Of a DNA stretch of 64,000 nt, positions 139 through 41,920 are shown in pieces (position 1 is the first letter of the stretch; every line of letters starts with the position of its first letter). The position numbers were made by a program, and so were the translations under genes. The stretch spans positions 1 to 64,000 of the IMG/VR virus record IMGVR_UViG_3300037183_000082. One strand, given 5' to 3'. Source of the DNA: a virus (Duplodnaviria > Caudoviricetes). The notes under the pieces were generated by a model. It was not told the origin of the DNA. It was given only the letters and a program-made list of their open reading frames with translations, and made no database searches.

Positions 139-399
139 TTAGGGCGGGGTCCCGTTTCCCGAGCGCGCCGCCGCTACGATAGTATCAAGCAACGCGGCAA
201 CTCTCGGCGCCTTCATCGTGAGAAGACCTCGAAGGGTGTTTCCTGCGACTTTCGCCCCCGCACGCACAAGCTCAGCACATGCGCCAGTGTGCGCAGCGAA
301 CAGGGGCTTTCCGGCGGCACCGAACAGAATGTCTTTGCTCGGGTCGACTTCAAGCCCGCACACCTTGCAGTAGATGGGCCCGTGCGCGAGCGTGCTCAC
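139..399 (-). CDS. small hypothetical protein with CxxC
   Basis: ORF 139..471; GTG at 399 overlaps the TGA of the upstream gene (GTGA coupling); YCKVC motif. Confidence 0.55.
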   Translation of the reverse strand: MSTLAHGPIYCKVCGLEVDPSKDILFGAAGKPLFAAHTGACAELVRAGAKVAGNTLRGLLTMKAPRVAALLDTIVAAARSGNGTPP

Positions 400-590
400 T
401 TGTACCAGCTTTTCACGCCGATTTTCTGCTGCAGCGCGGCCTGTTTGGCGCGTGCGGCGCACGGCGAGCAATCAGTCTTGCTCTTTTTCTTGGTCGTACC
501 CTGGCTCGATTGCGCGACCTGGGCGCCCTTGTTCATGAGCGACTGCGCCGCCCCCGTCAGCAAATTTCCGAGAAGTCCCATCGGTGCCAC
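396..590 (-). CDS. small basic hypothetical protein
   Basis: ORF in the minus-strand operon, stop coupled to the next start. Confidence 0.6.
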   Translation of the reverse strand: MAPMGLLGNLLTGAAQSLMNKGAQVAQSSQGTTKKKSKTDCSPCAARAKQAALQQKIGVKSWYK

Positions 591-652
591 CTCCTGCTCA
601 GGCTAGCGTACACCAAGGGTGCTTTTGGCTGTGCTGCTATAGGGGTACACGG

Positions 653-1075
653 TCAGCGAGGCTTGCGCTTGAGCGCGAAGTAGAAGCTCGTACCCGACCA
701 CGCAAGAAACGCTGCGCCCACACCCCAGTGAACCGCGCGCCACTGATGCACGGTCTCGGCCGCAGACCACACCGCGCCCGCTGTGAGGCCGCCCGTGAGC
801 GCGCCCTTGCGGCTGCCCTGCGCCATGTACCCAATGAGCCCGCCGACCGCGAGCGCGCCCGCGTAGCCACCGAGCACGTAGGGCCAGTCGATGCGCCCAA
901 TCAGCTGAACCACGGTCTCCGCTGAGACCGAGCCGCCCCCGTTGCCAGGTGCGAGCGGGAGCCCAGGCGGAGGTGGCGCTGCAGGCGGGCTTGCATCTGC
1001 AAGGCGCGCGATGCCATGCCCCGTCGCATAGGCGGTAGGCATCGGTGCTCGTGCTGTGCGCGCGGCGCGGCTCAT
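653..1075 (-). CDS. membrane protein, putative virion membrane component
   Basis: Several Gly/Ala-rich hydrophobic segments ending LKRKPR; start chosen at the ATGA overlap with the 1072 stop. Confidence 0.65.
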   Translation of the reverse strand: MSRAARTARAPMPTAYATGHGIARLADASPPAAPPPPGLPLAPGNGGGSVSAETVVQLIGRIDWPYVLGGYAGALAVGGLIGYMAQGSRKGALTGGLTAGAVWSAAETVHQWRAVHWGVGAAFLAWSGTSFYFALKRKPR

Positions 1076-1449
1076 GCGAGCGATGCCGTCGGCATGTGAC
1101 TTTGGAAGTAGGAGATCAGAAGGCCCACGACGGCGTAGCCCTCGGTCGCCGCGCACCAGATCTCCTGATCAGGGCCGACGTCAACCACGATCTGTGCACC
1201 GGGCGGGTAGGGCGTGCCCTTGTAGATGCGGTTAGGACCCGCCGCGCGCGAGATGTTCGTGGCGGGATCCGGGAAGCGCGGGTCGGGGGTCATGATCGTG
1301 ACGATGCCTGGGCTCGGGGGCACGAGGATTTGCACGCGACGAAACGCACCCGGCGGAAGCCGCGCGGCATCCTGCTCGGCCGCGAGGATGCGCCGAAACT
1401 CCTGGGTCACGGTAACGCGGGGACTCTCCGAAGCTTTGCGCAACTGCAT
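1072..1449 (-). CDS. small beta-rich protein, possible penton/minor capsid protein
   Basis: Alternating hydrophobic strands (VQILV, QIVVDV, VVGLLISY) directly downstream of the capsid-like genes; function inferred. Confidence 0.5.
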   Translation of the reverse strand: MQLRKASESPRVTVTQEFRRILAAEQDAARLPPGAFRRVQILVPPSPGIVTIMTPDPRFPDPATNISRAAGPNRIYKGTPYPPGAQIVVDVGPDQEIWCAATEGYAVVGLLISYFQSHMPTASLA

Positions 1450-1459
1450 GGGACAGACC

Positions 1460-2419
1460 TCACTGGATCGCGATGTAACCGACGAGCGCAATGCCGACGT
1501 TCGTCAGCACCTCTGACGTGTAGGGCAAGGCACTCGCCGACACGAGGATTCCCTCGCCTGGCTCCCAGAGCAGCCCATTGCCCGGAAACTGGTGCACGAG
1601 ACCGCGGCCCGAGTAGGTGCCCCACAAGGAACCAAGGCACAGGTTCGGTTGACTCGGCGCCGAGACCACCCAGTCTGCGTTCGTGCCGTTACCGATCTGG
1701 CGCACGCCCATTTCGATGTTGCGCAGATCGCCGATGGCGGTCGTGTCGTCGACACCAGCCGCCGCGTTCACCGTGATGTCGGTGATCAAAACAGGCTCGG
1801 CGCCGTCGTTCTTGAAGTTCTCGGGCGGAATGGTGGTCTGCGCGAGCGTGCTGAGCAGCACCGTGCCTGAGAACAAGTACGGGCGCTTGCTCAGAAGGCC
1901 TACGCCCGTGATCGTAACGGCTGCGGGGATGGCGCCTGTTTCCGTGAGCACGAGCGCGCGCAGCGTCACGACCAGCGCATCGCGCACGCTGAGCACGAAT
2001 GGCCGCCAGGGGCGCAAGCTGGATGTGCCCGGGTTGATGACATCGCTCGACGCGTTGACCTGCGTGCCCCAGCACGGGATCGGAACGAAGGTCTCATTCA
2101 TGTAGAACTGGTCATGGAAACGTAGCTGCATCCCGACCTGCTGAATGGTGTCCTCGGCGGGGGTGAGCGCGCCGGTTTCGCGATCGAAGTCCGTGACACG
2201 CGTAGAGGTCACCATGTGCGTGATGCGCACCGGGAAGTCTTCGCCGTTCACGAACGTGTTGGCATCCGCGAACACCGGGATAGGGTTGCCCTCTGAGGTG
2301 TCGATCGAGAGCGCCTCGTAATACAGCCGCGGCTCCTCGATCACGCCCCGGGCGATGTTCTCGCTTGCGAGCTTGATCAGGTAGCTCTCGTATTCCTTGG
2401 TGTTCGGATTCAGATCCAT
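1460..2419 (-). CDS. beta-rich two-domain capsid-like protein (putative jelly-roll)
   Basis: 319 aa; two halves each ending in a hydrophobic strand plus Gly (AVTITGVG, VGIALVGY); in the capsid gene cluster. Confidence 0.55.
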   Translation of the reverse strand: MDLNPNTKEYESYLIKLASENIARGVIEEPRLYYEALSIDTSEGNPIPVFADANTFVNGEDFPVRITHMVTSTRVTDFDRETGALTPAEDTIQQVGMQLRFHDQFYMNETFVPIPCWGTQVNASSDVINPGTSSLRPWRPFVLSVRDALVVTLRALVLTETGAIPAAVTITGVGLLSKRPYLFSGTVLLSTLAQTTIPPENFKNDGAEPVLITDITVNAAAGVDDTTAIGDLRNIEMGVRQIGNGTNADWVVSAPSQPNLCLGSLWGTYSGRGLVHQFPGNGLLWEPGEGILVSASALPYTSEVLTNVGIALVGYIAIQ

Positions 2420-2423
2420 CGCC

Positions 2424-3584
2424 TTACCCCTTGATCACAGCGAAGCCGTTGAGACTGATCCCGAGCGTGAAGCGCTCAGCGAGCGTGCGATCGCCCCCCT
2501 CGAACGCGAGCCCCGGAATCTTGACCTGCATGTCGAACGTATCGCCTGGCCCGAGCGTCACCGCCTCGTCAAGCTCGTAGACGACGGCAGGCGTGATGCT
2601 GTCGAGCACAAGCGCGATGGGGGCCCCGGGGCGCCACCAATGCGCCCCACCACCGCCACCGTTCGTCACGCGCGCGCTGATACCCACGCTCTGACTCACC
2701 GGCGCCACACGACCCGGCACGATGGGGCCGCCTGCGAACGGGGTCGAGAGCCAGGCCTGGTCATACTCGACCTGATCGATCGCAACCGACATGCCGAGGA
2801 TCTTGGTCGAGCCGGAGCGCGTGGCCTCTTGCCTGTCGAATTCGGTCGCAGAGAACGTCGACTGGGGCGCCCAGAACGGCACCCCGTTAGGCGTGGTCGG
2901 GTTTTGGAGCTGCGGCGGCAAGGGCCAGGGCCAGCCGTCCTCGTTCTGCTGCGGGATGGCGTTGAACCCGCCCGCTGCGCGACTCACCTGCACCGGCATG
3001 GATTTGGTGCGCGCCGAGCCGGCAAAAAGACCGCCCGCTTCGAGGTAGGCCACTGTGGCCGGGAGCGAATCGATGCTCGCGTTGCCAAGCACGTTGATGC
3101 GACCGCCGCCGTCATCAAACGAGAAGTCCTGAATCGAGCTGAGCCGCGTCTCGATGCTGCCCGTGCGCGGCAAGTAGAGGGGCTTTTTGAAGTTGAGCCG
3201 ACACTGGCCGTAAAGAGAGCCCGCGCCACCCTTGGGTTGAGGCTCGGACGTCGGTTTCGGCCGCGCCGTCGCCGTCACGATGCTCTTGCGCGAGTAGTTC
3301 TGCCGCTGCGGCGCGTTCCACTGAAAGAGCGCCTGGCCGTTCAAGATCTCCGTGCCAGCTCCGTTCGGCACGTAGTTCGTGACACCCACCGGCGAAACCC
3401 GAAAGGGGTAGTTGATGGCCGCGATCGCCAGCCGCTCGAACACGATGGGGTAGGGCCCGGGATTGCGGAAGTGCTCGCGGCTCAGCACGAGATTCGAGAG
3501 CACCTCGCCCGCCTGCGGTGAAGCTCCACCCACCGCCCACAACGACCGCGGCTCGTACCAGATACCGCCTTCAGGTTCAGCCAT
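2424..3584 (-). CDS. beta-rich capsid-like protein (putative jelly-roll), probable paralog of 1460..2419
   Basis: C-terminal half resembles 1460..2419 (PI-LVLD/VYELDEAVTLGPGD-F; ends GISLNGFAVIKG). Confidence 0.55.
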   Translation of the reverse strand: MAEPEGGIWYEPRSLWAVGGASPQAGEVLSNLVLSREHFRNPGPYPIVFERLAIAAINYPFRVSPVGVTNYVPNGAGTEILNGQALFQWNAPQRQNYSRKSIVTATARPKPTSEPQPKGGAGSLYGQCRLNFKKPLYLPRTGSIETRLSSIQDFSFDDGGGRINVLGNASIDSLPATVAYLEAGGLFAGSARTKSMPVQVSRAAGGFNAIPQQNEDGWPWPLPPQLQNPTTPNGVPFWAPQSTFSATEFDRQEATRSGSTKILGMSVAIDQVEYDQAWLSTPFAGGPIVPGRVAPVSQSVGISARVTNGGGGGAHWWRPGAPIALVLDSITPAVVYELDEAVTLGPGDTFDMQVKIPGLAFEGGDRTLAERFTLGISLNGFAVIKG

Positions 3585-3674
3585 CGCTCGCTCTCCCCCC
3601 AAACACTCACGCCCTCAAGCATCCTAGCGGAAAGCCAGGACGCCCAAGGGCGTTCGTTCAACCAGCACCTGAAA

Positions 3675-4415
3675 TCAGGCGACTGCGCGACGCTTCAGGC
3701 CGTCCATGTAGACGCGAAGCCGCCAGCTCTGGTCGAGGCCAGTGATCTGGCCGCCCGGCGTCTTGAGCGCAACGTACGCAGCACGGTCGGCGTCGATCTT
3801 GATCGGCAGGTTCCAGCGGCGCTGGTTGTCCGGCCACACGGGACCACCCGTGCCGTAGTCGAGCGCGAGGTTCGAGATGTTCGGACCACCGCCCTGGGCG
3901 ATGCTCACGAGCAACCCGTCGCCCGAGCTGAACGCCACCGCACCGAGACCTTGGCCGTAGTAGGCAAGGGGTGCGGAAGCCATCGGCTTCGAGATGTTCG
4001 CGCCGACGAACAGCTCCATGAGCATGTCCTTCTGCAGGCGGCGCAGGTTCGTGCCCGTGAGGATGGGATCGACCGCGGTAATGTCGGTCGAGCCCGGCTC
4101 CCCAAAGCTCGGATCGCGCTCAAGCGCGAAGGGCTCGTAGGTGAGGTTGAAGCAGATAAAGCCCTCATCGTGGTTGATGCGACCACGCACCACCTGGTTG
4201 GTGTCCGAGACACCCGCCGTGACGGGCGCAAGCACGCCCATGACGGGGATGCGGTCGCCCACCACGTACTCGAACAGGCGCAGATCGCCGCCAGCGCCGT
4301 TGCCGGAGCTTGCGACGTTGCCCTGCCCGAGGCCCGTCGAGAACAGCGGCCAGTGCAGCCACTCCTCGACGTTGATTTCGGTGCCGTCCGTGAGTCGGAT
4401 TTTCTCGATTGCCAT
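3675..4415 (-). CDS. putative major capsid protein, single jelly-roll type, paralog 3
   Basis: N-term IEKIRLTDG-EINVEEW-HWPLFST and C-term RVYMDGLKRRAVA are shared with the two upstream genes. Confidence 0.65.
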   Translation of the reverse strand: MAIEKIRLTDGTEINVEEWLHWPLFSTGLGQGNVASSGNGAGGDLRLFEYVVGDRIPVMGVLAPVTAGVSDTNQVVRGRINHDEGFICFNLTYEPFALERDPSFGEPGSTDITAVDPILTGTNLRRLQKDMLMELFVGANISKPMASAPLAYYGQGLGAVAFSSGDGLLVSIAQGGGPNISNLALDYGTGGPVWPDNQRRWNLPIKIDADRAAYVALKTPGGQITGLDQSWRLRVYMDGLKRRAVA

Positions 4416-4424
4416 GGTTTCCCC

Positions 4425-5117
4425 TCACGCCACCGCACGACGGCGGAAACCGTCGAGGAAGAGACGGCACACGAGGCGCGCGTCCGTTTGCAGGTTGAGG
4501 CCCGCGACCTCGCCCTTGTTGAAGCTGAGCGCGACCTTGAAGGCCTCGCCGCCTGCGACGTAGAGCGGGCTCGCCAACGCGCGCACGCCCTCGGTGCTGG
4601 TCGAGCCGTTGTAGGCGACCGCCGTGCCCGTGGCGCCGTCCGACACGCGTGTCAGACCGCCCGAGTACACGTGCTGGACACCCGCGGCGCCCGGCCAGTA
4701 CGACAGCGGGCTCTGGGTGTAGTTCTTGACCGCCGCGATCGACAGCTCGATGAGCGTGTCGCGCTGCAGACGAAGCATGTCGGGCAGCGGGACCTCAGGC
4801 TGGTCCGGGTCGGGGAACGCGTTCGGGTCCAGGGCAAGGCCCTGCTTGAACACGTCGATCGCGAGGTAGTGAATCGCGATCTCCTCGTTCTCCGGGAGCT
4901 TCGAGCCCTCGCCCTGCAGGTTGGTGTCGATGGCGGTGGCCATGCGCGGCCCGACGCTGCCCGGCACCACGTCGCCTGACGTGTAGCTGAACGCGTTGAG
5001 GGTCGTGATAGGTCCCGCCGCGACCTCGACCGTGGACCAGAGAGGGACGGCAGACGTCCACTCGCCGGGAACCACGACCATGCCATTCGGTAGACGCATT
5101 TTGCGAATCTGTGCCAT
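4425..5117 (-). CDS. putative major capsid protein, single jelly-roll type, paralog 2
   Basis: N-term QIRKMRLPNG-VVVPGEW-SAVPLWST; C-term RLFLDGFRRRAVA. Confidence 0.65.
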   Translation of the reverse strand: MAQIRKMRLPNGMVVVPGEWTSAVPLWSTVEVAAGPITTLNAFSYTSGDVVPGSVGPRMATAIDTNLQGEGSKLPENEEIAIHYLAIDVFKQGLALDPNAFPDPDQPEVPLPDMLRLQRDTLIELSIAAVKNYTQSPLSYWPGAAGVQHVYSGGLTRVSDGATGTAVAYNGSTSTEGVRALASPLYVAGGEAFKVALSFNKGEVAGLNLQTDARLVCRLFLDGFRRRAVA

Positions 5118-5131
5118 GGGTTCGGGCTCCT

Positions 5132-5905
5132 TCAGCTCACAGGACGCTTGTAGAGGCCGTCCAGGTACACGCGCACGGTGGCCATGATGTTGTCGGGGCC
5201 GTTCGAGGCGCCCGTCACGACCGAGGGAGTCGCCTCCGTCTTGCCGATCCAGATGGGCTGGTTCGCGGCATTGCGGATGCGCAGCTTGAACTTTTCCTGG
5301 CCACCAATGTGGCTCGGAATGACGAGCGAGCGCACCGCCTCATCCGAGGGCAAGCCCTGGGAAGCCGGCGTGACACCCGCGCCCGTGGCCGTGGTGGTGA
5401 TGCCCGCCATCTGCCCGAAGCCCGGGTTGAAGTAGGCGAAACCCGCCTGACTGAAGATCTTCTGCGTGATCTCCAGCTCGATCAGCACCTTCGCGTTCAG
5501 CTCGGCCAACGCGGAGAGCGTCGGAGCGGGCATAAACGCGCGGCTGTTCTTGCCACCGAGGGTCGTGCCGCCCGAGACGCGCGTCGTGAAGTCGTTCGGG
5601 TCGAACGCGTACAGCTGCACGTCGGGCCTGATCGAGTAGACCAGGAATTCCTCAGTCGAGGAGAGCCCGCCCTGCGTCGCCACGTTCGTGTCGTTCGCAG
5701 TGTTCGTGCGCGGGGTGATGGCACCGAGCGCGGGGTTGGCGACTGACGGCACCGGGCGACCGATGGTCACCTGGAAGAGGTTGATCTCTTCGGCCGTGTA
5801 GCCGTTGCCCATGTCGCAGGATGCGAACAGGGGCTTGTCGGACCAGTCGGTAAGCGCGACGACAGCGCCGTCGGGCATCCGAATCTGAACGATCTGATTC
5901 AGCAT
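5132..5905 (-). CDS. putative major capsid protein, single jelly-roll type, paralog 1
   Basis: N-term QIVQIRMPDG-VVALTDW-DKPLFAS; C-term RVYLDGLYKRPVS. Confidence 0.65.
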   Translation of the reverse strand: MLNQIVQIRMPDGAVVALTDWSDKPLFASCDMGNGYTAEEINLFQVTIGRPVPSVANPALGAITPRTNTANDTNVATQGGLSSTEEFLVYSIRPDVQLYAFDPNDFTTRVSGGTTLGGKNSRAFMPAPTLSALAELNAKVLIELEITQKIFSQAGFAYFNPGFGQMAGITTTATGAGVTPASQGLPSDEAVRSLVIPSHIGGQEKFKLRIRNAANQPIWIGKTEATPSVVTGASNGPDNIMATVRVYLDGLYKRPVS

Positions 5906-5926
5906 GGGTGTTCAGCTCCTGTTCGA

Positions 5927-6607
5927 TCAGAACGAGGCCGGCCCGAAGGCCGACACGTCCATGCCTGCGCCCACGCCGCGGGACCGACCGAGGCCCTTGA
6001 CGTTGACGGTTTCGCCGCCCGAATAGGCGTTGTAGCCCTGGGCAGACTCGGGCTCCATCACGATGGCGCCGAGGCGGCGCGCACCGGCGGTGCCGTACTC
6101 GGGCAGGATGGCGCCGACGCCAGAGAAGCCCATCTTGCCGTCGAGCAGCATGTCGGCGAGCAGCACGCCGCCGACCACGCCAGCACCAGCGGCAGCGCCG
6201 TAGCCTGCGGGCTTGCCGGCGAGCATGCCAAGGGCCGCTGCGCCGAGACCGCCGACGACCACGCCGATGGCGGGCGCCCACTTGATCAGCATGGCCTGGG
6301 TGGGCGTCTGCGCGGATACGGCCGTTGCGGTCGTTGCGGCAGCGGCGGCAGCATCGGCGCCAAGGCCCATCTGCTGCCAATGCGCCGCAAGGCCCTTGGT
6401 GGTGGCCGCGTCCGTTTTCGGAGTCGCGAGCATCTTGACGGCCATCGTGGCGATCGCCGTCAGACCGCCACCGATCGCGGCAGGTAGGAAGGAGCCCGAG
6501 AACGAATTGGGCTGCTTCAACGAACCAAGGCCGCTCACGCGACGAGCAACGATCACGTTGCCTACGCCGCGATGTCCACGCCGCCCACGCTTTCTACGCT
6601 TTGCCAT
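5927..6607 (-). CDS. virion membrane/core protein with basic N-terminus
   Basis: MAKRRKRGRRG start, multiple Gly/Ala hydrophobic helices, xGLG motifs; GGAGG RBS upstream. Confidence 0.7.
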   Translation of the reverse strand: MAKRRKRGRRGHRGVGNVIVARRVSGLGSLKQPNSFSGSFLPAAIGGGLTAIATMAVKMLATPKTDAATTKGLAAHWQQMGLGADAAAAAATTATAVSAQTPTQAMLIKWAPAIGVVVGGLGAAALGMLAGKPAGYGAAAGAGVVGGVLLADMLLDGKMGFSGVGAILPEYGTAGARRLGAIVMEPESAQGYNAYSGGETVNVKGLGRSRGVGAGMDVSAFGPASF

Positions 6608-6673
6608 GCTGTCTTCCTCCGGGCGACGAAGCGCCGAGTTAGCGAAACCAGTGTACCGTTACTCTTCTGAGAC

Positions 6674-7111
6674 CTAGCGATTTTTTCGCTTGCGCGCGAA
6701 AACCGCCCACACACCGACGCCAAGGATGGCGACGAGCGCCCCCGCTGACGCCGCGATCGCCTGGTCCCAACGGCGCTTGTCCGTAAGGGCCCGCGACGCG
6801 TTTACCCTGAGCGCTTCGAGCTGGATAAGCAGCGCCTGCCGCTGATTGCCCCAGTCTGCATCGGCGGTGCTGCTCGACTTGGCTTCCATGGCGTCGATCG
6901 CCACGCCCATGCTGCTCAGCTGCGACTTGAGGGTGCCGGACGTGCCTGCACCTTCGTCAGACAGCAGATCGATCAGACCCTGCGCCTGCGCGTGCGCCGC
7001 CCAAAGGATCCCGACGTCAGTCTCACGCGAAGCGCCGACCGCAGCCGCGCCCAAACCGCTGAGCCCCATCATGGGGTAGCTGTACGTCAGGCCTGGAAAA
7101 TGGCGGCTCAC
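6674..7111 (-). CDS. tail-anchored membrane protein
   Basis: C-terminal TM followed by RKRKNR; LSGLG motif; GTGA-coupled start. Confidence 0.65.
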   Translation of the reverse strand: MSRHFPGLTYSYPMMGLSGLGAAAVGASRETDVGILWAAHAQAQGLIDLLSDEGAGTSGTLKSQLSSMGVAIDAMEAKSSSTADADWGNQRQALLIQLEALRVNASRALTDKRRWDQAIAASAGALVAILGVGVWAVFARKRKNR

Positions 7112-7848
7112 TTCTTCTTCCCCCAACGCCACCACGCGAAGCCCACCCCGAACACGCTGGCGCCGATCGCGACGTAGACCCAGGTGCTCAGACCCTTCGA
7201 GGTCGTACCTTCAACAGGTGCGACCTCGGTCGTGCTGAACGAGACATCCTGCGACGGGAGGATGTTCGTCCCGCCACCCTGACCTTGCGTCACAGCCTGC
7301 TGCGCGTCGGTGTTCACCGCAGGCGCGGGGCGCGACACCGGCGCAGGTGCCACAGGCTTTGAGGGCGTGGGCAGCGGTTTGGGCTGCGGGCGCGGTGCGG
7401 GTGCCGGCGCCTGCTGCACGAGCGGGATCGACAGCCGCTCGATGATCATCATGACGCCCGAAGCCCCGTCCGGGTTCGCGACATCGCAAGCATGCGTGTA
7501 GAACGCGCTCTGCGAAAAGCCGGTGTTGTCGACGAGGCAGAGCCACACCGCAAATGCGGTTTTCGGCCCGTACTTGCCATCGATCGTGAGCGGGCCGATC
7601 GCCACGCCCACGCTCTTGTAGAGCGACTTGAGCGTCGACACGCGCGTGTTCCACTGCGTCTGGAACGTGCTCACGGTCGTCGTTTTCACGAGCGTGTGCG
7701 GCTTTTTGCAGCCCGCCCCGCCCTCCATCGCGTCCAACATGCGCACAGCCATCGCACGCAGGTCAGTCAGCGCCTGGATCTGCGCGGCCGATGCCGACGG
7801 CATCGCGATGTAGGTCGAGGTGTCCTTCTGCTGGATCTGCTGCGCCAT
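7108..7848 (-). CDS. tail-anchored protein with peptidoglycan-binding-like motif
   Basis: LTIDGKYGPKT resembles the PG_binding_1 DGxYGPxT signature; Pro-rich linker; C-terminal TM plus GKKK. Confidence 0.6.
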   Translation of the reverse strand: MAQQIQQKDTSTYIAMPSASAAQIQALTDLRAMAVRMLDAMEGGAGCKKPHTLVKTTTVSTFQTQWNTRVSTLKSLYKSVGVAIGPLTIDGKYGPKTAFAVWLCLVDNTGFSQSAFYTHACDVANPDGASGVMMIIERLSIPLVQQAPAPAPRPQPKPLPTPSKPVAPAPVSRPAPAVNTDAQQAVTQGQGGGTNILPSQDVSFSTTEVAPVEGTTSKGLSTWVYVAIGASVFGVGFAWWRWGKKK

Positions 7849-7859
7849 CGCGATTTCCC

Positions 7860-8228
7860 CTAGAAGTAGAGCCGAGCCGCACGCGCGAGCGCGCTACCGA
7901 GCGATTCACTCACCATGCGCGAACCGGGGTTCGTCGGGTGGTTCATCGCGCTGTCGATGACCTGGTTGGCCGAGGGCACGCGGTAGAGCGGCGCTTGGTC
8001 GACGTCGACGATGTCGAGCGCGCCGAGCGGCATGAGCGGTGCGGTCGTCGGGTGGAGGCCGCCCGCAAGCAAGCGCGGCGTCTCGGCCATTTGCGTTGCC
8101 GCCCAGTGGCCATACTGCACCTCTCGTCCTGGGGGCACGATGTAGCCACTCGGCGTGTTGCCGCGACGCGCATCGAGCGCGATCTGCGAGCCGGGCTGCC
8201 CCTTCTGCGTGATGGTGAAACGACGCAT
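7860..8228 (-). CDS. hypothetical virion protein
   Basis: ORF in operon; start at MRRFTITQ after a GAGG RBS. Confidence 0.55.
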   Translation of the reverse strand: MRRFTITQKGQPGSQIALDARRGNTPSGYIVPPGREVQYGHWAATQMAETPRLLAGGLHPTTAPLMPLGALDIVDVDQAPLYRVPSANQVIDSAMNHPTNPGSRMVSESLGSALARAARLYF

Positions 8229-8232
8229 CGGA

Positions 8233-8757
8233 CTACCTCTTTTTTCTGAGCAGCAAGTAGCCGCCGCCCAAGACGAGCACGGCACCGCCCCCCAAAACCC
8301 AGGGATTCTTGTAGAACGGCGCAGGCGCCGTCGGATCGGTAGCGCCGAGCCCGCTCATGTTGAGGTGCGAGGTCGACAGCATTTGCTGGCTCGGAATGCG
8401 CCCGACGCGCAGGTGGCGTGTGGCCGAACCCGAGGGGCGCGCGTAGGCGATGGCGTGGCCGAGGCCGTTGAGTGCGAGCGTCTGGCTCAGCTCCGAAGCG
8501 TAGGCGTGATCGGCGGCAGCCCAGGAGTCACGTCGCACCATGGTGCGCACCGCGTCAGGACCTTCCGCGGTGTTGTCAGCGTGCAGCGTCGTGCGCGCCA
8601 CCTGGCCTGCACCACCCGGGGGCGTTCCCACTGCAGCGCGGGGCTCGAACGCCGGGCGACCACCCACGAACACCATCGACGAGTCCACGACTTTGCCGGG
8701 CATCGCGTTCGCGGTGCTCTGATACGGATTTGGCTTTGAGACCCGAATCGTCGACAT
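8233..8757 (-). CDS. tail-anchored membrane protein
   Basis: MSGLGATDP motif, C-terminal TM plus RKKR. Confidence 0.7.
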   Translation of the reverse strand: MSTIRVSKPNPYQSTANAMPGKVVDSSMVFVGGRPAFEPRAAVGTPPGGAGQVARTTLHADNTAEGPDAVRTMVRRDSWAAADHAYASELSQTLALNGLGHAIAYARPSGSATRHLRVGRIPSQQMLSTSHLNMSGLGATDPTAPAPFYKNPWVLGGGAVLVLGGGYLLLRKKR

Positions 8758-8787
8758 GCTGCCCCCTACTGGACCCGAACCATCGTA

Positions 8788-9648
8788 TCAGGCCCGCTTC
8801 GGTTTCCTGAAAAAGAACCACGACACGCCCAAAGCCCCAGCAAAAGCCCCTGCACCGATTGCGTACTTGGGCCAGCTCGTCGAGGTCGTGACTGCAGGCT
8901 TCGGCGCAGCCTTGGCCTTGGCCGCAGCCGCTGCGGCAGCCTGTGTGATGTGCAGATTCGCCGGAACGGCCATTGCAGGCGGCGCGGCGCTCGTCTTCGA
9001 TGTCGCCATCGCAGTGAGTGCACTCGACGCCGCAGCTTTCGTGATGGCCGTACCCGCCGACGCCGTAGTCGAGGTAGCGGGGCGTGAAGCACCAGGCGCC
9101 GCACCACAGCGCGACCCGCAAATCGCATGCTGCATAAGCGCCGCGAGGTGGTCGATCTCGCGATCGATCTGCCGAATGATCGCGTCCACAACCGTGTGCG
9201 TCAGCTCCGCGACGATCGTGCCCACAGCCATCGACACGATGCCGGCGTAGTTGACTCCACCGCCTTGGTTGAAAATGTGACTCGTGAGCTGGACGTTCGC
9301 TTGCACCGCAGCAACACAGCTCGCGCCTTTTTTGCTCACGCAGTGACCAGTCGCTGAGATCGACACGGCACCGTCTGCAAGCGAGCCAAGTGCCGTTTTC
9401 ACCATGGATTGCAACGTGGCGTTGAGCTTCGCTTTCATCACCTCGATAGGAAGCACCACCATGCTGCAGCAATCGAGATGCTGAGCTACGTCGATCGCAG
9501 CACTGAGTAGCGATGTGCCGGTGATCGCATACGCAGAAGCCTTGCCCGGGATCGCAAAGTAGAACGAATCGACGATGCCGCCGGATGCGGCAGCCGATGC
9601 CGACGCGGCGACCGAAGCCGGAACCAATCCGAGTACGTAGCGACTCAT
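8788..9648 (-). CDS. Ala-rich tail-anchored membrane protein
   Basis: ATGA-coupled start MSRYVLG; C-terminal TM plus RKPKRA. Confidence 0.65.
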   Translation of the reverse strand: MSRYVLGLVPASVAASASAAASGGIVDSFYFAIPGKASAYAITGTSLLSAAIDVAQHLDCCSMVVLPIEVMKAKLNATLQSMVKTALGSLADGAVSISATGHCVSKKGASCVAAVQANVQLTSHIFNQGGGVNYAGIVSMAVGTIVAELTHTVVDAIIRQIDREIDHLAALMQHAICGSRCGAAPGASRPATSTTASAGTAITKAAASSALTAMATSKTSAAPPAMAVPANLHITQAAAAAAAKAKAAPKPAVTTSTSWPKYAIGAGAFAGALGVSWFFFRKPKRA

Positions 9649-11591
9649 CGTCCGCGCTTTCTGAGGAGCAACCAAGCCCCCGTGGCGATCGATCCTGCCA
9701 CAGCTGTCCAGCCAACCCACGCCAAAGACTTGGTGGGCGCAGGCGCGGCCACCTTCTTTGCAACTGCAGGTGCCGCGGGCTTCGCCGCAGGCTTCACCAA
9801 ACGCTGGATCAAATTCGCAGCCGTCACATCGATCAGCATTTTCGGTTTCGGCGTCGCAGCCTTCACGGCACGCACGATGTTCTTGAACGCAGCGCCGTAG
9901 CGCGCGTACACCGTGTTCGTGCTTCCGTGCGTCGGCGATAGAAACGCCATGTCGGAAGTGAACTTGCCGCCCGGATCGGCAGGGATACCACCCGAGCGTA
10001 GGAACGCACCTGCAGGCATCTCGTAGAAGATTTCGAGCGGGTGTGCGGTGTGCTTCGCCGTGGCCTGGATGCTGTCGTAGGCGTTCTTGAGGTTGGCGGC
10101 GGCGGATGCGTAGTTCTCGTACACGAGATCGATGAGCGCGCCCAGCTCGCTCAGCGCAGGCGCCAACCCAACCGTCCAGGTTGCGAGCGTGTTCGACTTT
10201 TTGATCTTGTGGATCTCGTCATGGGCAAGCGGCATCATCATGTTGCCGGTGTCGGAGTTGGGGTGTCCTGCCGACATGAGATCGAGCCAGTCGGCCTGGA
10301 ACGCCTGCAGAAGCTCGACGTAGTCGATCGCCTGAAACCACGCCCCCCACGCGCGGTACTCGCCGCTCGACCATGACAGCGCGAACGCAAGGCTCGTCGC
10401 TGCAGCACGTTGCAGATCGGGCAGCGTCGGAATGAAGCGAAAGCCCGCCGGACAGCGGAAGCGGCCATCGCCATCTGGGTCAAACGGCGAGCCGTAGTTG
10501 AAAACACCTCGCGACGAGTCGACGACAGCCTTGTGGCCGGCTGTGCTGTCGCCGAGCGCATCAAAGCGATACGCGAACGAAAGGAACGACCACCGCGATG
10601 CCATGAACGCGAGGAACGCATTCGGGTTCGTGAGCGGCGGGTCTGCGCTGCCCGCAGCCTTGTAAAGCGCAAGCCGCGCGGCTGTCGCTACGGGATCCTC
10701 GATGAGCTTGGCGTTCTGAAAGATGGCATCGGCATCCGTGAACGAGCGCGCGATGATGCCGAGCGGCTGGTTGTAGAGCGCCTTGAAGCCCACACCCTTC
10801 GACCACGGGATGTGCACCGTCTGGTAGTCGAGACTGTCTTGCCACCATCGCGACAGGCGCACCTCGGTCGGCGCATCGTTGATGAGCGGAAGCGACAGAA
10901 ACATCGGCGCGGCCATGGTCCCGCACCCAAGCACGAGCGGCCCGATGTTTGAGCTGCGCCAGAGCGCCCCGCCGCTGTCCCACGAAGCTTGCCAGTAGCC
11001 CGCTGCAGACATCGCTTTCTTGTCGGCTGCAGCGCAAGTGCGCTTTGTCTTTGGGTAGTACCCCGAAGCACCAGAGAACGGCACTGAACCCATGGCCGTC
11101 CCGAGCTTGCCCTTTGCCGCCGACACCTTGCCCATCGCAGTGTAGAAGCGCTTCATCGAAGGGCTGTTCAGGTACGAGCCGGGCGGCAGTCGAACACCCT
11201 TGTTGAGCGTCTGCGCAACCCAGGGCGGCTGCCCAAAAAACGCGCGACCCCAGAGGTAGTCGCTCACGTTGAACGCGAACAAACCCTCGCCGATCGTCGC
11301 CATGAGCATCAACGCCCAGTACATGCGCTCGTCGCTCGGCGCCGTCGCTTTCGGCTCGTTCGCAAGCATCGCCTGCACAAGATCTTGTTGGGCCACGAAC
11401 CACGCGACCGGGTAGAGCGCCTTGGTGATGATCGCATCGCCGTTCGGCAGATCGGGGTCGGGGATGTTGTCGTCGGCGCGCAACCCTGTGCGCAGAACAC
11501 CGCTGACAGGCTTCGCGTTGCCGGGGATCGTCACCCAGTGCTTGGTGGTTTCAAGGTACGCCGGCCAGACGGCCTTGAACCACGCGTACAC
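9645..11591 (-). CDS. large tail-anchored virion protein
   Basis: 648 aa ORF; Pro/Ala/Lys linker, then C-terminal TM plus RKRGR. Confidence 0.75.
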   Translation of the reverse strand: MYAWFKAVWPAYLETTKHWVTIPGNAKPVSGVLRTGLRADDNIPDPDLPNGDAIITKALYPVAWFVAQQDLVQAMLANEPKATAPSDERMYWALMLMATIGEGLFAFNVSDYLWGRAFFGQPPWVAQTLNKGVRLPPGSYLNSPSMKRFYTAMGKVSAAKGKLGTAMGSVPFSGASGYYPKTKRTCAAADKKAMSAAGYWQASWDSGGALWRSSNIGPLVLGCGTMAAPMFLSLPLINDAPTEVRLSRWWQDSLDYQTVHIPWSKGVGFKALYNQPLGIIARSFTDADAIFQNAKLIEDPVATAARLALYKAAGSADPPLTNPNAFLAFMASRWSFLSFAYRFDALGDSTAGHKAVVDSSRGVFNYGSPFDPDGDGRFRCPAGFRFIPTLPDLQRAAATSLAFALSWSSGEYRAWGAWFQAIDYVELLQAFQADWLDLMSAGHPNSDTGNMMMPLAHDEIHKIKKSNTLATWTVGLAPALSELGALIDLVYENYASAAANLKNAYDSIQATAKHTAHPLEIFYEMPAGAFLRSGGIPADPGGKFTSDMAFLSPTHGSTNTVYARYGAAFKNIVRAVKAATPKPKMLIDVTAANLIQRLVKPAAKPAAPAVAKKVAAPAPTKSLAWVGWTAVAGSIATGAWLLLRKRGR

Positions 11592-11594
11592 GGG

Positions 11595-12113
11595 TCACTT
11601 CCCTGCAGGCTTGCCGTAGCCCTGCATCACGGCCACGCCGGTCGTGATCAGCGGGAACATGAAGCCGAGCGCGGCCCAACCGATGGTCCAGCCCGTCGAG
11701 CCCTTGTTGCGACGCGCGCCGTGGATACCACCTGCGATGGCCCCGAGCAGCGAATAGCCGAACGAGCGTGCCACGTAGAATTGCGTGATCGCCGAGTCCG
11801 GGACAGCTACACCAGCTTCAGGCGCGAGCGCACCGAGGCCTAGCCCGTAGAGCGCGTAGACCGGCGAACCTGCGCTCGACATATTGTTGCTCAGCGTCTT
11901 GTCCGTGGGGCGCAAGAGGTTCTGCGGGTAGCCCGGCGTGCTCGGGGGCATCGGCAAGCGATTGATGAGCCACGGCGGCTCGGGCGCGCCGTAGTCGTAG
12001 CGCGAGTCTGGTCCACCGTAGCCGGGGTATCCGCCCGCACCGTCGTAGCCCTGCTCGCGCGCGACCTGAGCCGAGTCGATCGCGCCAAGGGCCATCACCT
12101 GAATCGCTGGCAT
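11595..12113 (-). CDS. membrane protein with Gly/Tyr/Pro-rich N-terminus
   Basis: Two C-terminal hydrophobic helices; LYGLGLG motif. Confidence 0.7.
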   Translation of the reverse strand: MPAIQVMALGAIDSAQVAREQGYDGAGGYPGYGGPDSRYDYGAPEPPWLINRLPMPPSTPGYPQNLLRPTDKTLSNNMSSAGSPVYALYGLGLGALAPEAGVAVPDSAITQFYVARSFGYSLLGAIAGGIHGARRNKGSTGWTIGWAALGFMFPLITTGVAVMQGYGKPAGK

Positions 12114-12116
12114 GGT

Positions 12117-12329
12117 TCAGTACCTCCCAATGAGGCCCTGCGTGGGCGCGGTTTCGGGTGTCTCGGGTTTGGTGGAGTACGCAAACCACGCCCACAATGC
12201 CAAAAAGCCACCGCCGCCTACCGCCATACCGCGGTATGGGCGATCGTAGTCGATGAGCGTCCCCGCAATGGCGCACGCACTGGCAAGAAAAGCGTTGGCG
12301 ATCAGCTTTCCAGAGACTGGTTTAGCCAC
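12117..12329 (-). CDS. small two-TM membrane protein
   Basis: Two hydrophobic segments; tightly packed in the operon. Confidence 0.6.
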   Translation of the reverse strand: MAKPVSGKLIANAFLASACAIAGTLIDYDRPYRGMAVGGGGFLALWAWFAYSTKPETPETAPTQGLIGRY

Positions 12330-12330
12330 G

Positions 12331-12891
12331 TCAGTACCTCCGAATCCGATAGACGTCAGGAAAGCGCGGGGGTGCGCCGCGTGGCAGCAAGTAGGTCATC
12401 TGCGACTCGCCGACCGGATCGGCTGCGATGCCGCGCGCGATGGCCATGAGGTCGGTGTTCGACTGCACGTCGGGCCTGTCGAGCACCCCGCGGCTCGTTG
12501 GCACAGGGTTCATGTCGAGGTACGAGTCGACAGACGGGATGTCGTTGTAGGCGTCGGCCGCCTGATCGATGGGATTGAGCGACGCGACCGCGGGCCCGAG
12601 CCCGGCATCACGCAGTGAGGCCAGCATGCGTCGAGCCCCGTCGCGCGCTTCGATCACGTTCACAGCACCCATGCCGAGAACCTGGGTGTTGTAGCCCGCG
12701 GGCGGCGTGCGCCATTTGTTGAAGCCCATCTTCTGGGGCATGTAGTGGTCGGCTTCGACCCGGACGTCGGCGCCGGCCTGATCGTCCTGGATGCCCTGCT
12801 GCACGACCCAGGGCGCAGCCGGATAGGCCTGGTTGCGCAAGAGGTTGAACGGCAGGTTGCGAACCCTCTTTGGCGGCATGAAGGACGGCAT
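12331..12891 (-). CDS. hypothetical virion protein
   Basis: 186 aa ORF; TAGACT -10-like box 7 nt upstream of the ATG. Confidence 0.65.
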   Translation of the reverse strand: MPSFMPPKRVRNLPFNLLRNQAYPAAPWVVQQGIQDDQAGADVRVEADHYMPQKMGFNKWRTPPAGYNTQVLGMGAVNVIEARDGARRMLASLRDAGLGPAVASLNPIDQAADAYNDIPSVDSYLDMNPVPTSRGVLDRPDVQSNTDLMAIARGIAADPVGESQMTYLLPRGAPPRFPDVYRIRRY

Positions 12892-12896
12892 GGCGT

Positions 12897-13100
12897 TCAG
12901 TCTACCTTGTCAGGGGTGCTTTTCGGCCCGGACAGTGCACGCACCGCGCGCAGCTCCCAGGCGCGCGCAAGGCCCATGTCGCCGCCGCTCGCCCAATCGA
13001 GCGGATTTGCAGACAGAAGCACCGCGCGCAGCTGCCTGCAGTACGCGATGAGGTCGTTTCGCCCCATCGCGGTGTAATCAGGTGCGCCAGGGTCGTTCAT
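12897..13100 (-). CDS. small hypothetical protein
   Basis: Start overlaps the upstream stop (TGATG). Confidence 0.5.
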   Translation of the reverse strand: MNDPGAPDYTAMGRNDLIAYCRQLRAVLLSANPLDWASGGDMGLARAWELRAVRALSGPKSTPDKVD

Positions 13101-13318
13101 CACCTGCGCCCCCATGCAAGCCAGCCCGTGAGCAGCCCAAGCCCTGCGGCGAGCGTGGCCGAGCCCACGACCCAGGTGCGCGTCTTGCGCCGCTGGTCGA
13201 GGAACATCAGGTAGCCCTCGCTCGCGGTGCCCGTGAACGCGGCGTACTCCGCGCTCTCCTCAGGTGTGAGTTGGGAGGGTGCGAGCGTGCCGAGCGAGAC
13301 CTGTCGAACTTGTGCCAT
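13100..13318 (-). CDS. small tail-anchored membrane protein
   Basis: C-terminal TM plus GRR; GGAG RBS. Confidence 0.6.
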   Translation of the reverse strand: MAQVRQVSLGTLAPSQLTPEESAEYAAFTGTASEGYLMFLDQRRKTRTWVVGSATLAAGLGLLTGWLAWGRR

Positions 13319-13319
13319 C

Positions 13320-13988
13320 TCAACGCCTCCAAATCTGGATACCGAGGTAGAGCGCCATGAGCGCAATCGCACCGCCGCCCACGTAGTAGAGCGTCTTTTT
13401 GCTGGAATCGCTCAGGCTCTGCAGCCCCGCGGAAGCGCCATCGACAACGCCTTGCGTCACGGACGAGAACAGCCCTGCGATCGCGTCGCCGAACGTCGCG
13501 GGCGTGCCCATGGGGCGCGCGGTGACAGGCAACGGCTTCACCGCGCAGTGGCCGACCACGAACGCCTCCCACTGAAGCGCTCGCGCATGGAACGCCTGCG
13601 CCCGACTCACATCGTCCTTGAGCCACGTGAACCAAATCGAAGGCCCGGCGCTGTAGAACGTCACCCAAGAGGTGCGAAACGCGTACCACAGCGTGAGGTC
13701 GCTCGCCGGAAAGCACGGCTTGCGCATCACACCCCCGATCAAGGTGTTGAGCGCGAGCATGTAGCTGTGAATGTTGGCGTAGTACGTTTCGAGGTTGCCC
13801 GGGCTCGGGTAAAAAGTGACGTTCGTGTCCGCGCTCGGCAGCGTGTTCACCACAGGCGGCGCACCCCCAGGCATCGGCGGAGGTGGAACGGGGGGCGTCG
13901 CAGGCGTGACCCCCAAACTGCGGCGTGTCGTGATCATCGCTTCGCTTTGGCTCGGGCGCGTTTGGCTTTTGCGCTTGGGTATTGGCAA
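13320..13988 (-). CDS. tail-anchored membrane protein
   Basis: 222 aa; C-terminal TM plus RR. Confidence 0.7.
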   Translation of the reverse strand: MPIPKRKSQTRPSQSEAMITTRRSLGVTPATPPVPPPPMPGGAPPVVNTLPSADTNVTFYPSPGNLETYYANIHSYMLALNTLIGGVMRKPCFPASDLTLWYAFRTSWVTFYSAGPSIWFTWLKDDVSRAQAFHARALQWEAFVVGHCAVKPLPVTARPMGTPATFGDAIAGLFSSVTQGVVDGASAGLQSLSDSSKKTLYYVGGGAIALMALYLGIQIWRR

Positions 13989-14107
13989 AGCAACTTGAGC
14001 GTGCCGCCGTGACGACGCCGCCCTTTAACTGCTTGCGAGCGTGTCGCATATATGTGCGACCTTGAACCTGACGCCAACCACCACCAACATCGCTGGTTTG
14101 ACATGGC

Positions 14108-14512
14108 TCAACGCCTCTTGCGGAATAGAAGCCAGCCTGCGACGAGGCCGAGCACTGCACCGCCACCACCGAAATACCACTTCGTGTAGTCGACAGGTGC
14201 TGCGGGATCGGTCGCACCAAGGCGCCCGACCTCGTTGTGGTAGGGCAACAGGTTGTAGCCCGAGCCGAGACCACGCACCGGCGCAATGCTCTGTGCTGCA
14301 GGATGCAGCGTCGCCTGACACTGAAGCAGCGCACGGTGGTAGACCGTCGCAACATTCATTTCACTTGCAAGGCGTGCCCTACAAGTGGCCAAAGAATCTG
14401 CGCACGAAGTTGCACCGAGACCGCGCAGGCCGTGCAGCACGTCGTAGGAGGTGTAGATGTTGCCGATCTCGGAGCGTGGCGGCATGAGGGGGAAGGGACG
14501 CATGTTCAGCAC
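14108..14512 (-). CDS. tail-anchored membrane protein
   Basis: LRGLG, VRGLG and RLGATDP motifs; C-terminal TM plus RKRR. Confidence 0.7.
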   Translation of the reverse strand: MLNMRPFPLMPPRSEIGNIYTSYDVLHGLRGLGATSCADSLATCRARLASEMNVATVYHRALLQCQATLHPAAQSIAPVRGLGSGYNLLPYHNEVGRLGATDPAAPVDYTKWYFGGGGAVLGLVAGWLLFRKRR

Positions 14513-14515
14513 CTT

Positions 14516-15154
14516 TCAAACGAGCATGTAGTCGCGGAACTTCGCGATCTGGTCGAACTGCCAGCCGGGCACAGCGCCCGTGACGGTGATGTCGAGCGGG
14601 AGCCACCACACAGGGGCCGCCTTGGGCAGCCCTACGAGCGGATAGATGTGCACCCACTCGCCGGGATTTTCCTGCGTGGAGATCACGCGCGCTGCGATGT
14701 GGAAACCGAGCGCGCCGAGGAGCGCGGCGAACGCGATTGCAGCGTCGTCACAGTCCCCGCCGCCTGCCTGCAGCGTGGCCTTGAGCGTCGCAAAGGTGTC
14801 CACGTTCGTGATGTCGTAGACATACCTCACGTTCTCGACGAGGAAGTTCCAGATCTTGCCGATCTCGCACTCGTCATTGCGCGGCGGACAGGGCTGCATG
14901 CCGTTGTCCGGGGGATGGAAGTAGTCGCCCCACGCTTCGATGCGGGGCATGTCCATGCCGTTCACGCGCAGGAACGTCGTCTTGTCGGAGACGATCTTGA
15001 CGGCGAGCTGGCGCGACTCAGGGTCCCGCAAGGACTTCTGCACCTGCTGCTGGATGATCCCCACGTGCTCGTCGAGGTTTTTCGTCGCGTAGAAGCGCAC
15101 CGGCGTGCTGTTCACAGCGGCGGTAGCGGCAGACGCTTGGGCGGGACGGGCCAT
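14516..15154 (-). CDS. transglutaminase-like (papain-fold) cysteine protease/transferase
   Basis: Cys-His-Asp triad motifs GDCDD, WVHIY, PLDIT; VRYVYD upstream. Confidence 0.8.
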   Translation of the reverse strand: MARPAQASAATAAVNSTPVRFYATKNLDEHVGIIQQQVQKSLRDPESRQLAVKIVSDKTTFLRVNGMDMPRIEAWGDYFHPPDNGMQPCPPRNDECEIGKIWNFLVENVRYVYDITNVDTFATLKATLQAGGGDCDDAAIAFAALLGALGFHIAARVISTQENPGEWVHIYPLVGLPKAAPVWWLPLDITVTGAVPGWQFDQIAKFRDYMLV

Positions 15155-15161
15155 GCGAAAA

Positions 15162-15171
15162 ATCGTATCAC
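15162..15171 (-). promoter_or_regulatory. extended -10 promoter GTGATACGAT, leaderless
   Basis: TGnTAnnnT 7 nt upstream of the ATG at 15154; recurs at 41905, 53814, 54170 and 55644. Confidence 0.65.
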
Positions 15172-17262: not shown

Positions 17263-17323
17263 AGAAAAGTGACCAAAAAAGGCCGAAGGCCCCCGAAATC
17301 TGGCTCAGGTTAGGTCGATTCAG

Positions 17324-41908: not shown

Positions 41909-41920
41909 TACGATTTTTCC

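Follow-up and report, generated by a model that had tools for sequence, protein, structure and literature searches.

A predicted jelly-roll capsid module and membrane-protein block in an 80.6-kb viral genome: a candidate tailless lineage

The known tailless, lipid-containing double-stranded DNA (dsDNA) viruses that infect bacteria or archaea have a genome size of ~10-45 kb, with a packaging ATPase of the FtsK/HerA type in nearly every one. In Singelaviria/Helvetiavirae (Sphaerolipoviridae, Simuloviridae and Matsushitaviridae, with SH1, HHIV-2, HCIV-1 and P23-77), the shell is built of at least two single jelly-roll proteins encoded side by side, one of which bears an upper domain, and SPV1 (Portogloboviridae) combines single jelly-roll capsid proteins, a membrane and a circular dsDNA genome in a tailless virus for which we know of no packaging ATPase. 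Here we compare with these systems the IMG/VR virus record IMGVR_UViG_3300037183_000082, classified under Caudoviricetes. The stretch analyzed at the outset (64,000 nucleotides, hereafter the window) had initially been annotated from its sequence as part of an unusually large, temperate, tailless virus with a putative vertical jelly-roll capsid and an internal membrane.

We favor, with rather more confidence than doubt, the reading that this is a tailless, membrane-containing virus with a jelly-roll capsid, belonging to a new and widespread lineage with genomes of ~80 kb. The core of the initial annotation, a tailless jelly-roll virus from a lineage much larger than those known, has withstood both observations that it had named as able to overturn it: no terminase, portal or HK97 gene was detected in the 16.6 kb beyond the window, and the two candidates that were folded are jelly rolls.

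The window spans positions 1-64000 of one contig of 80,634 bp, the first 127 bases of which recur at its end (a 127-bp terminal repeat); the IMG/VR record lists direct terminal repeats and a CheckV completeness of 100%. The 80.6-kb genome is complete and its assembly is circular. It has 64% G+C and no tRNAs, an Rfam scan of the window matched no RNA family, and gene calling with a codon-position model gave 124 genes. The late operon, on the minus strand, begins with g023 (14516-15154), extends as far as g001 (396-581) and, past the contig junction, goes on through g124-g120 (contig 71990-80631). In an 89-kb relative (L011) the operon genes form one unbroken row, in which the small late genes are followed by a 213-residue gene, a 376-residue gene and then the fiber genes.

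Capsid-type and membrane-protein genes of the late operon

A run of β-rich, capsid-like genes had been noted in the operon, with structure prediction of the candidates in 1072-5905 as the suggested check. Two of these, g007 (4425-5117; 230 residues) and g004 (1460-2419; 319 residues), both on the minus strand, were modeled with AlphaFold2 (AF2), and both gave confident jelly-roll folds, in line with that annotation. The g007 model (predicted local distance difference test (pLDDT) 84.5, predicted template modeling score (pTM) 0.81) shows a single jelly roll and one helix. Foldseek returned no match to g007 below E 1e-3, with SPV1 at rank 2, and exhaustive structural alignment (VIA-align) ranked the SPV1 capsid protein first. 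Re-scoring of the Foldseek candidates by VIA-align gave, in order, the SPV1 major capsid protein (6oj0; Z 8.5, 145 of 178 residues, root-mean-square deviation 3.4 Å, 10% identity), HHIV-2 (Z 7.0), Satellite panicum mosaic virus (Z 6.9), P23-77 VP17 (Z 6.8, 17% identity), SH1 (Z 6.8, 16% identity), and HCIV-1 (Z 6.7, 16% identity). Five of these six top entries are single jelly-roll proteins that serve as major capsid proteins in tailless dsDNA viruses with an internal membrane; for the predicted g007 fold it is the coherence of this list, and not any single Z, that constitutes the evidence.

g007 is also the best-conserved late protein, with 38-62% identity among relatives, and its homologs form at least 193 metagenomic clusters, many of them on contigs of 76-89 kb with the same gene order and a GC content of 57-69%. 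That g007 shows the strongest conservation among the late proteins fits the expectation for a major capsid protein, for which it is the main candidate. Two paralogs flank it on the same strand: g008 (5132-5905; 257 residues) aligns with g007 along its whole length at 31% identity (alignment A1) and is 36-44% identical in relatives, and g006 (3675-4415; 246 residues) is 30% identical to g007 in A1 and 38-50% identical in relatives. As paralogs of g007, g008 and g006 are predicted single jelly rolls.

The g004 model (pLDDT 94.6, pTM 0.91) has an N-terminal helix followed by one jelly roll (residues 25-121 and 253-319) into which a β-sandwich (122-252) is inserted, the ranges being taken from structural matches. 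Its top Foldseek match is birnavirus VP2 (E 1e-7, probability 1.0, with a TM-score of only 0.2), CRESS-virus capsids coming next, and the best VIA-align matches (Z 5.7) are to the second jelly rolls of giant-virus double jelly-roll (DJR) capsid proteins, with one barrel aligned, and to HHIV-2. All of the top structural matches of g004 are virus capsid proteins, and we regard it as a second capsid-protein candidate that may supply shell plus projection or tower. The adjacent g005 (2424-3584, minus strand; 386 residues) is a distant paralog of g004, predicted to share the jelly roll and inserted domain and to carry an extra insertion of ~70 residues; hhalign of A3 against A2 relates the two over their full length (probability 98.3%, E 1.2e-14, 278 columns). 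Homolog clusters number at least 135 for g004 and at least 57 for g005. Comparison of the g007-type alignment with either of the others by hhalign (A1 vs A2, A1 vs A3) showed no relationship. As modeled for g004 and g007, and as extended by paralogy to g005, g006, and g008, the module has five genes for jelly-roll-type proteins, which fall into two families and lack a close relative of solved structure. These proteins probably form the capsid, and by analogy with SPV1 and the sphaerolipoviruses their barrels may stand vertically.

Sequence comparison contributed little to the identity of these proteins: neither a comparison of g007 and g004 with 50,697 phage genomes by tblastn nor the search of the operon proteins against PHROGs and Pfam gave anything informative on it. 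The Atlas gave weak language-model leads (scores 0.77-0.80) that pointed to P2_N/P2_C, the coat domains of PM2; these were dropped, as six-frame family searches gave them no support.

Upstream of the capsid-type genes lies a block of 14 small and medium-sized genes, g009-g022 (5927-14512, minus strand), 11 of which encode transmembrane segments by a scan for hydrophobic segments and tail anchors, and which we presume to specify virion membrane proteins. Over g002-g022 as a whole (653-14512), 12 genes bear transmembrane segments and nine of these are tail-anchored (g002, g010, g011, g013, g014, g015, g020, g021, and g022), sharing a plan in which an ectodomain is followed by a single C-terminal Gly/Ala-rich transmembrane helix and a short Lys/Arg tail. 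The same architecture recurs at syntenic positions in five relatives (L005, L007, L009, L010, and L011), with little or no sequence in common there. The more than 10 membrane-anchored proteins initially counted are thus borne out, in a pattern that is syntenically conserved. No Pfam or PHROG family was matched by g009-g022. The largest member, g015 (9645-11591, minus strand; 648 residues), is tail-anchored and fast-evolving, lacks a family match, and has syntenic counterparts of 546-910 residues that are tail-anchored too. The 12 transmembrane proteins in the late operon, nine of them with conserved tail anchors, are consistent with an internal lipid membrane, the position of a bilayer not being readable from sequence; we infer that the membrane lies inside the shell.

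g013 (8233-8757) and g022 (14108-14512), which are otherwise dissimilar, share a C-terminal module consisting of LGATDPxAP, an aromatic residue, a Gly run, the transmembrane helix and the Lys/Arg tail, which suggests duplication or exchange of an anchor cassette. Before the contig junction the operon continues with the small late genes g003 (125 residues, conserved), g002 (129 residues, with two transmembrane segments and a tail anchor), and g001 (61 residues, Lys-rich), together spanning 396-1449 on the minus strand. Beyond the junction, g120-g122 encode Gly/Ala/Thr-rich repeat proteins with globular ends, which we read as vertex fibers; g121 and g122 have a C-terminal domain in common.

Hallmark genes, packaging and competing explanations

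Neither terminase, portal, HK97 capsid, tape-measure nor tail genes had been recognized in the 64 kb of the window, and profile searches bear this out and extend it to the whole genome. Searches with hmmscan, in which all open reading frames (ORFs) of at least 300 residues were compared with Pfam, and the operon plus ~40 other ORFs with PHROGs, gave no match to any of these families. Six-frame searches of the complete 80.6-kb contig, for which positive-control genomes were matched, gave no match at E ≤ 1 to TerL_ATPase, Terminase_6N, Terminase_3 or GpA_ATPase (PF03354, PF03237, PF04466, and PF05876, respectively), and likewise none, by sequence profiles only, to Phage_portal (PF04860) or Phage_capsid (PF05065). 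In seven related virus records, two of them complete, Terminase_6N (PF03237), TerL_ATPase (PF03354), and Phage_capsid (PF05065) were also without a match. Because the six-frame searches of the complete contig were empty and their controls positive, the hallmark genes are not hidden in the 16.6 kb outside the window. We examined g030 (20429-22195) as a terminase or portal candidate because no other ORF of terminase size was left unexplained; it was rejected, as it has no Walker A motif and is conserved within the replication module.

Only three proteins of the genome contain a Walker A motif, g024 (DUF3987), g035 (AAA_24), and g046 (PIF1); all are of replication or recombination type and none is in the late operon. 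g024 (15307-16665, minus strand), a neighbor of the late operon, is a DUF3987-type P-loop ATPase of the primase-helicase C-terminal type (PHROG "DNA primase" 2.5e-13, Pfam DUF3987 3.6e-6). As a packaging ATPase it was rejected: its matches are to primase-helicase families, its homolog lies on the replication-module strand in three relatives (L013, L006, and L007), and a promoter box lies between g024 and g023. In these relatives the g024 homolog is upstream of the g030 homolog and of the SNF2, PD-(D/E)XK, AAA_24, PolA, and PIF1 genes. The initial annotation was correct that the window holds no FtsK/HerA-type ATPase; its expectation that one would lie outside the window fails, since six-frame profiles find none in the whole genome. 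Because an FtsK/A32-type ATPase is absent from the complete genome, the morphogenesis hallmark of Varidnaviria and Singelaviria is lacking.

Several observations weigh against a tailless, membrane-containing jelly-roll virus. The best Z for g007, 8.5, is middling, given that, by the calibration of the tool, the best score expected by chance is typically 7-8. Jelly-roll and β-sandwich folds occur also in cement, baseplate, and fiber proteins of tailed phages, and KHP40 cement, Pam1, and the fiber of phage 7-7-1 appear lower in the same structural match lists. No sequence link to known capsids was detected: hhalign against P23-77 VP16/VP17 gave 3% or less, the PM2 coat domains P2_N/P2_C had no match in six-frame family searches, and sequence and profile searches of the PDB with A1, A2, A3, A4, g024, and g030 gave chance-level matches only. 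The fold models cover g004 and g007, while g015, g030, and g005, which are large and conserved, are read by sequence; the overall reading rests on genes and monomer models, and particle architecture is not readable from either. FtsK_SpoIIIE (PF01580), Pox_A32 (PF04665), and DUF87 (PF01935) had no match at E ≤ 1 in six frames of the complete genome, and the enclosure of 80 kb of DNA without a recognized ATPase has no known bacterial precedent. Finally, the N-terminal ~140 residues of g122 (contig 76913-79069; L001:12913-15069) match hypothetical proteins of 39 tailed-phage records at 27-29% identity; of these records, 31 are from Erwinia phages, mostly jumbo phages, and the others include Pseudomonas and Dickeya phages and Salmonella phage Sen-NF; where examined, the gene lies in a tail-fiber gene cluster. 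This N-terminus is the sole feature that leans toward a tailed phage.

An alternative is that the genome belongs to an extremely divergent member of Caudoviricetes, whose HK97 capsid, portal and terminase escape the profiles and in which g004-g008 serve in decoration, at the baseplate or in receptor binding. The sharing of the g122 N-terminal domain with proteins of tail-fiber clusters, the tailed-phage type of the replication module, the automatic Uroviricota label of the related Atlas clusters, the β-sandwich phage accessory proteins among the weaker structural matches and the reading of g015 and g030 from sequence would all suit such a phage. The large terminase subunit, however, is the most detectable gene of Caudoviricetes, and four terminase families gave nothing at E ≤ 1 here, two of them nothing in the seven relatives, with positive controls; the three P-loop proteins of the genome are all of replication or recombination type, g030 lacks Walker A and sits in the replication module, and g015 is a tail-anchored membrane protein, unlike a portal. 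With no tape-measure-like or tail-tube-like gene in evidence, and with a dense block of membrane-protein genes that is atypical of a head/tail module, we consider a divergent tailed phage improbable. A non-viral, plasmid-like or other mobile element, in which the operon would encode an adhesion or secretion apparatus of β-sandwich and membrane proteins, could explain the missing packaging enzyme, the two integrases together with a DUF932 gene, and the many membrane proteins. Against it, both folded proteins best match virus capsid proteins, the genome has an endolysin-type amidase, an M15 peptidase, fiber-like proteins, and promoters and modules of phage type, conjugation and partition genes turned up in none of the scans made, the relatives keep a tight range of 76-89 kb with a fixed gene order, and viral classifiers accept the genome; we think this explanation very unlikely indeed.

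More of the preferred reading survives in a third explanation, in which the virus is non-tailed and has a jelly-roll capsid and the membrane proteins are not internal, forming instead an outer envelope or acting unpackaged in the host membrane (at assembly sites, in superinfection exclusion or in egress). Tail-anchor topology fits an inner or an outer bilayer equally, and the fast-evolving, large, tail-anchored g015 would suit an exposed envelope spike or fusion protein. Yet the genes are part of the late operon and immediately precede those of capsid type, as in the P23-77 layout; in PRD1 and PM2 the membrane-protein genes are arranged likewise in the late operon, and, to our knowledge, the lipid is inside the shell in all known prokaryotic dsDNA viruses that have lipids and a jelly-roll capsid. 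To this explanation we assign a small chance, somewhat above that of a divergent tailed phage, and we retain the tailless virus with its membrane inside the jelly-roll shell as the preferred reading.

Other genes, relatives, and host

The first gene of the late operon, g023 (14516-15154, minus strand), encodes a transglutaminase-like (papain-fold) Cys-His-Asp enzyme by its match to Pfam Transglut_core (E 1.1e-6, 29.3 bits, above the cut-off). Cys122, His156, and Asp175 are invariant across five sequences at 42-57% identity, and g023 is among the best-conserved late genes; it is a candidate virion maturation protease or cell-wall peptidase. The tripeptide G-[LM]-G, mostly as x-G-L-G-[A/S], is ~4-fold enriched in g009-g022 (14 observed vs 3.6 expected, a count reached in none of 2000 shuffles) and shows no enrichment elsewhere in the proteome; the enrichment recurs in the syntenic block of five of six divergent relatives (L005, L006, L007, L009, and L010) and never appears in the jelly-roll block. 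By analogy with maturation of the adenovirus type, it is a reasonable hypothesis that g023 acts as a protease on G-L-G cleavage sites in the membrane block, a role in cell-wall digestion being the alternative. L013 has a g023 homolog as well as an M15 peptidase gene, the latter corresponding to g062.

A promoter-like box, GTGATACGAT, is present at 15162-15171, 7 nt before the g023 ATG at 15154. The pattern GTGATACG[A/C]T occurs five times in the window (15162-15171, 41905-41914, 53814-53823, 54170-54179, and 55644-55653), compared with 0.12 expected, and the box at 15162-15171 is compatible with an extended -10 element that gives rise to leaderless mRNAs. A ~2-kb stretch of lower GC (16666-18614; GC 0.61), with essentially no credible ORF, separates the divergent late and early modules; its lone 137-residue ORF (17620-18033) had no PHROG match, and no Rfam match fell in the stretch, which could harbor the origin, a regulatory region or unrecognized RNAs.

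The divergent early/replication module (18615-39032, plus strand) contains, by Pfam and PHROGs, g030, an SNF2 helicase, a PD-(D/E)XK nuclease, AAA_24, DUF669, a uracil-DNA-glycosylase-exonuclease-PolA protein, a PIF1 helicase, and a tyrosine integrase (37773-39032), in an order identical to that in L013. The family A polymerase, two or three helicases and integrase that had been annotated are recovered by Pfam as PolA, three helicase-type proteins (SNF2, PIF1, and DUF3987) and the tyrosine integrase. The polymerase gene g042 (29985-34259) encodes 1424 residues with a uracil-DNA-glycosylase domain, a 3′-5′ exonuclease and a family A polymerase, compared with only 833 residues in the L013 homolog, and a LAGLIDADG domain at residues 1156-1217 resembles an intein or homing-endonuclease insert. 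g030 is a Pro-rich protein of 588 residues, without a P-loop, encoded between the DUF3987 helicase and SNF2 genes of the module, with 204 representative homologs of 520-840 residues; none of 44 family members scanned had a Pfam match, one PHROG match was at chance level, and no PDB match was significant.

An Amidase_2 endolysin-type gene is located at contig 70598-71287. g062 (43399-43893) is 46% identical to an L013 gene with a weak Peptidase_M15_4 match, PHROGs giving a weak "ferredoxin" label instead, and is likely to be an M15-like cell-wall peptidase. Because the genome encodes an amidase and an M15-like peptidase, the host would have peptidoglycan. Among named records, relatives are found in just two, a 4.2-kb contig of a Phycisphaerae metagenome-assembled genome (MAG) and a protein from a Planctomycetota MAG, and these weak hints suggest a planctomycete host. 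The Atlas clusters of the relatives carry the automatic taxonomy Uroviricota.

The initial annotation had called the virus temperate. Two integrase genes are indeed present, the second being a tyrosine recombinase of 292 residues at 63957-64835 (L012:957-1835; Phage_integrase E 1.6e-14) that runs over the window end, and from these two genes we infer that the virus is temperate. No integrated copy was seen: a pattern scan of 185,579 species genomes found only the 4.2-kb contig of the Phycisphaerae MAG and a chance-level Mesorhizobium match, and the sole find of a profile search across 401 Planctomycetota genomes was the same Phycisphaerae contig. An IMG/VR "provirus" record, G402 (L004, 63,930 bp), is collinear with this genome between the homologs of g025 and g008, extending into the latter, and lacks host flanks; it is a genome fragment, and its label looks like a classifier artefact. 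G402 carries a tRNA-Gln and has 57% GC. Literature searches found no description of the lineage, the 21.9-kb Phage-ZRK32 of a planctomycete (PMC10945688) and a study of tailless Methylomirabilis phage (PMC5099504) being unrelated or unlinked to it.

In the cycle that we propose, the late operon would be transcribed from its own promoter at ~15171, making the g023 enzyme first. The dozen small membrane proteins (g009-g022 and g002), most of them tail-anchored, would define the area of host membrane from which the lipid layer of the virion derives, and g008, g007, and g006 together with g005 and g004 would build the icosahedral shell and its vertices; the Gly/Ala-rich fibers or spikes encoded by g120-g122 may mediate host recognition. 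Replication would rely on a module typical of tailed phages (PolA, SNF2, PIF1, DUF3987 helicase, AAA_24, and PD-(D/E)XK), and lysis on the amidase (contig 70598-71287) and the M15-like peptidase g062. The genome would be enclosed without a known motor, by co-assembly or condensation, or else by an unrecognized enzyme. Enclosure by co-assembly or condensation has reportedly been proposed for SPV1.

Comparison with known systems

The initial annotation had placed the virus with Varidnaviria. The likeness to jelly-roll, tailless viruses stands; the realm label is unsafe, as no sequence link to the sphaerolipovirus or PM2 capsids was found, the ATPase is absent, and the vertical single jelly-roll viruses now form a separate realm, Singelaviria (PMC12714852). 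Whether the genome represents a new lineage of high rank (family to class or above) we regard as an even call: such a lineage would have genomes of ~80 kb and a membrane-containing icosahedral shell of five paralogs that is structurally nearest to SPV1 and Singelaviria without shared sequence, would lack a terminase and an FtsK/A32 ATPase and use an encapsidation mechanism new to bacterial viruses, would combine its capsid with a replication module of tailed-phage type, and would at present be misfiled as Uroviricota in databases. If the preferred reading is true, the size limit of the tailless lipid-containing architecture is stretched two- to four-fold, bacteria have a counterpart to the single jelly-roll shell of the SPV1/sphaerolipovirus type, and a concrete, testable question arises, that of the means by which a virus lacking any known motor encloses 80 kb of DNA. 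The pairing of a jelly-roll morphogenesis module with a PolA/SNF2/PIF1 replication module of tailed-phage type would then be a clear example of modules being exchanged between virus realms, and, with automated pipelines filing such genomes as tailed phages by their replication genes, non-tailed viruses would be under-counted in viromes.

The DJR viruses of Varidnaviria (PRD1/Tectiviridae, PM2/Corticoviridae, STIV, and the giant-virus major capsid proteins) share with the predicted virion a tailless icosahedral shell over an internal membrane, many small membrane proteins encoded in the late operon, and vertex spikes, and g004 and g007 match single barrels of the PRD1 P3, STIV, PBCV-1, and EhV-201 capsid proteins weakly (Z 4-5.7). 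In contrast to the DJR proteins, g004 is modeled as a jelly roll with an inserted sandwich and not as two sequential barrels, the genome has no A32/FtsK ATPase, and it is 5-8 times the size of PRD1 or PM2. Birnavirus VP2 (IBDV, IPNV) resembles the g004 model in its helix, jelly-roll shell domain and inserted β-sandwich projection; however, the TM-score is 0.2 and the VIA-align Z ~4, and birnaviruses are animal dsRNA viruses with tangential barrels. The resemblance of the modeled g004 to VP2 is one of domain plan and is not evidence of kinship.

Likeness to the Singelaviria viruses introduced above extends to the small membrane proteins encoded in the capsid operon and to the structural matches of g007, whose Z of 6.7-7.0 is middling and comes from a monomer model without barrel orientation; P23-77 furthermore has a bacterial host and genes for an amidase and a lysozyme. 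Singelaviria genomes, however, are 17-31 kb and encode two capsid proteins, compared with the five jelly-roll paralogs here, and they have an FtsK/HerA-type ATPase gene beside the capsid genes (ORF13 in P23-77), whereas this genome has none. SPV1, the top structural match of g007, is matched also in the absence of a packaging ATPase, and the comparison with it rests on capsid protein structure, that absence, and circularity. It differs in having an archaeal hyperthermophile host, a genome of ~20 kb, four times smaller than the 80.6 kb here, and no sequence similarity; set against it, the present genome has three plus two jelly-roll paralogs, a PolA-based replication module, fiber genes, and a bacterial-type host, as indicated by the peptidoglycan amidase. 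Membership of either group is not demonstrable; in how it works, the virus comes closest to SPV1 and to viruses of the sphaerolipovirus type, with a genome 2.5-4 times larger than theirs.

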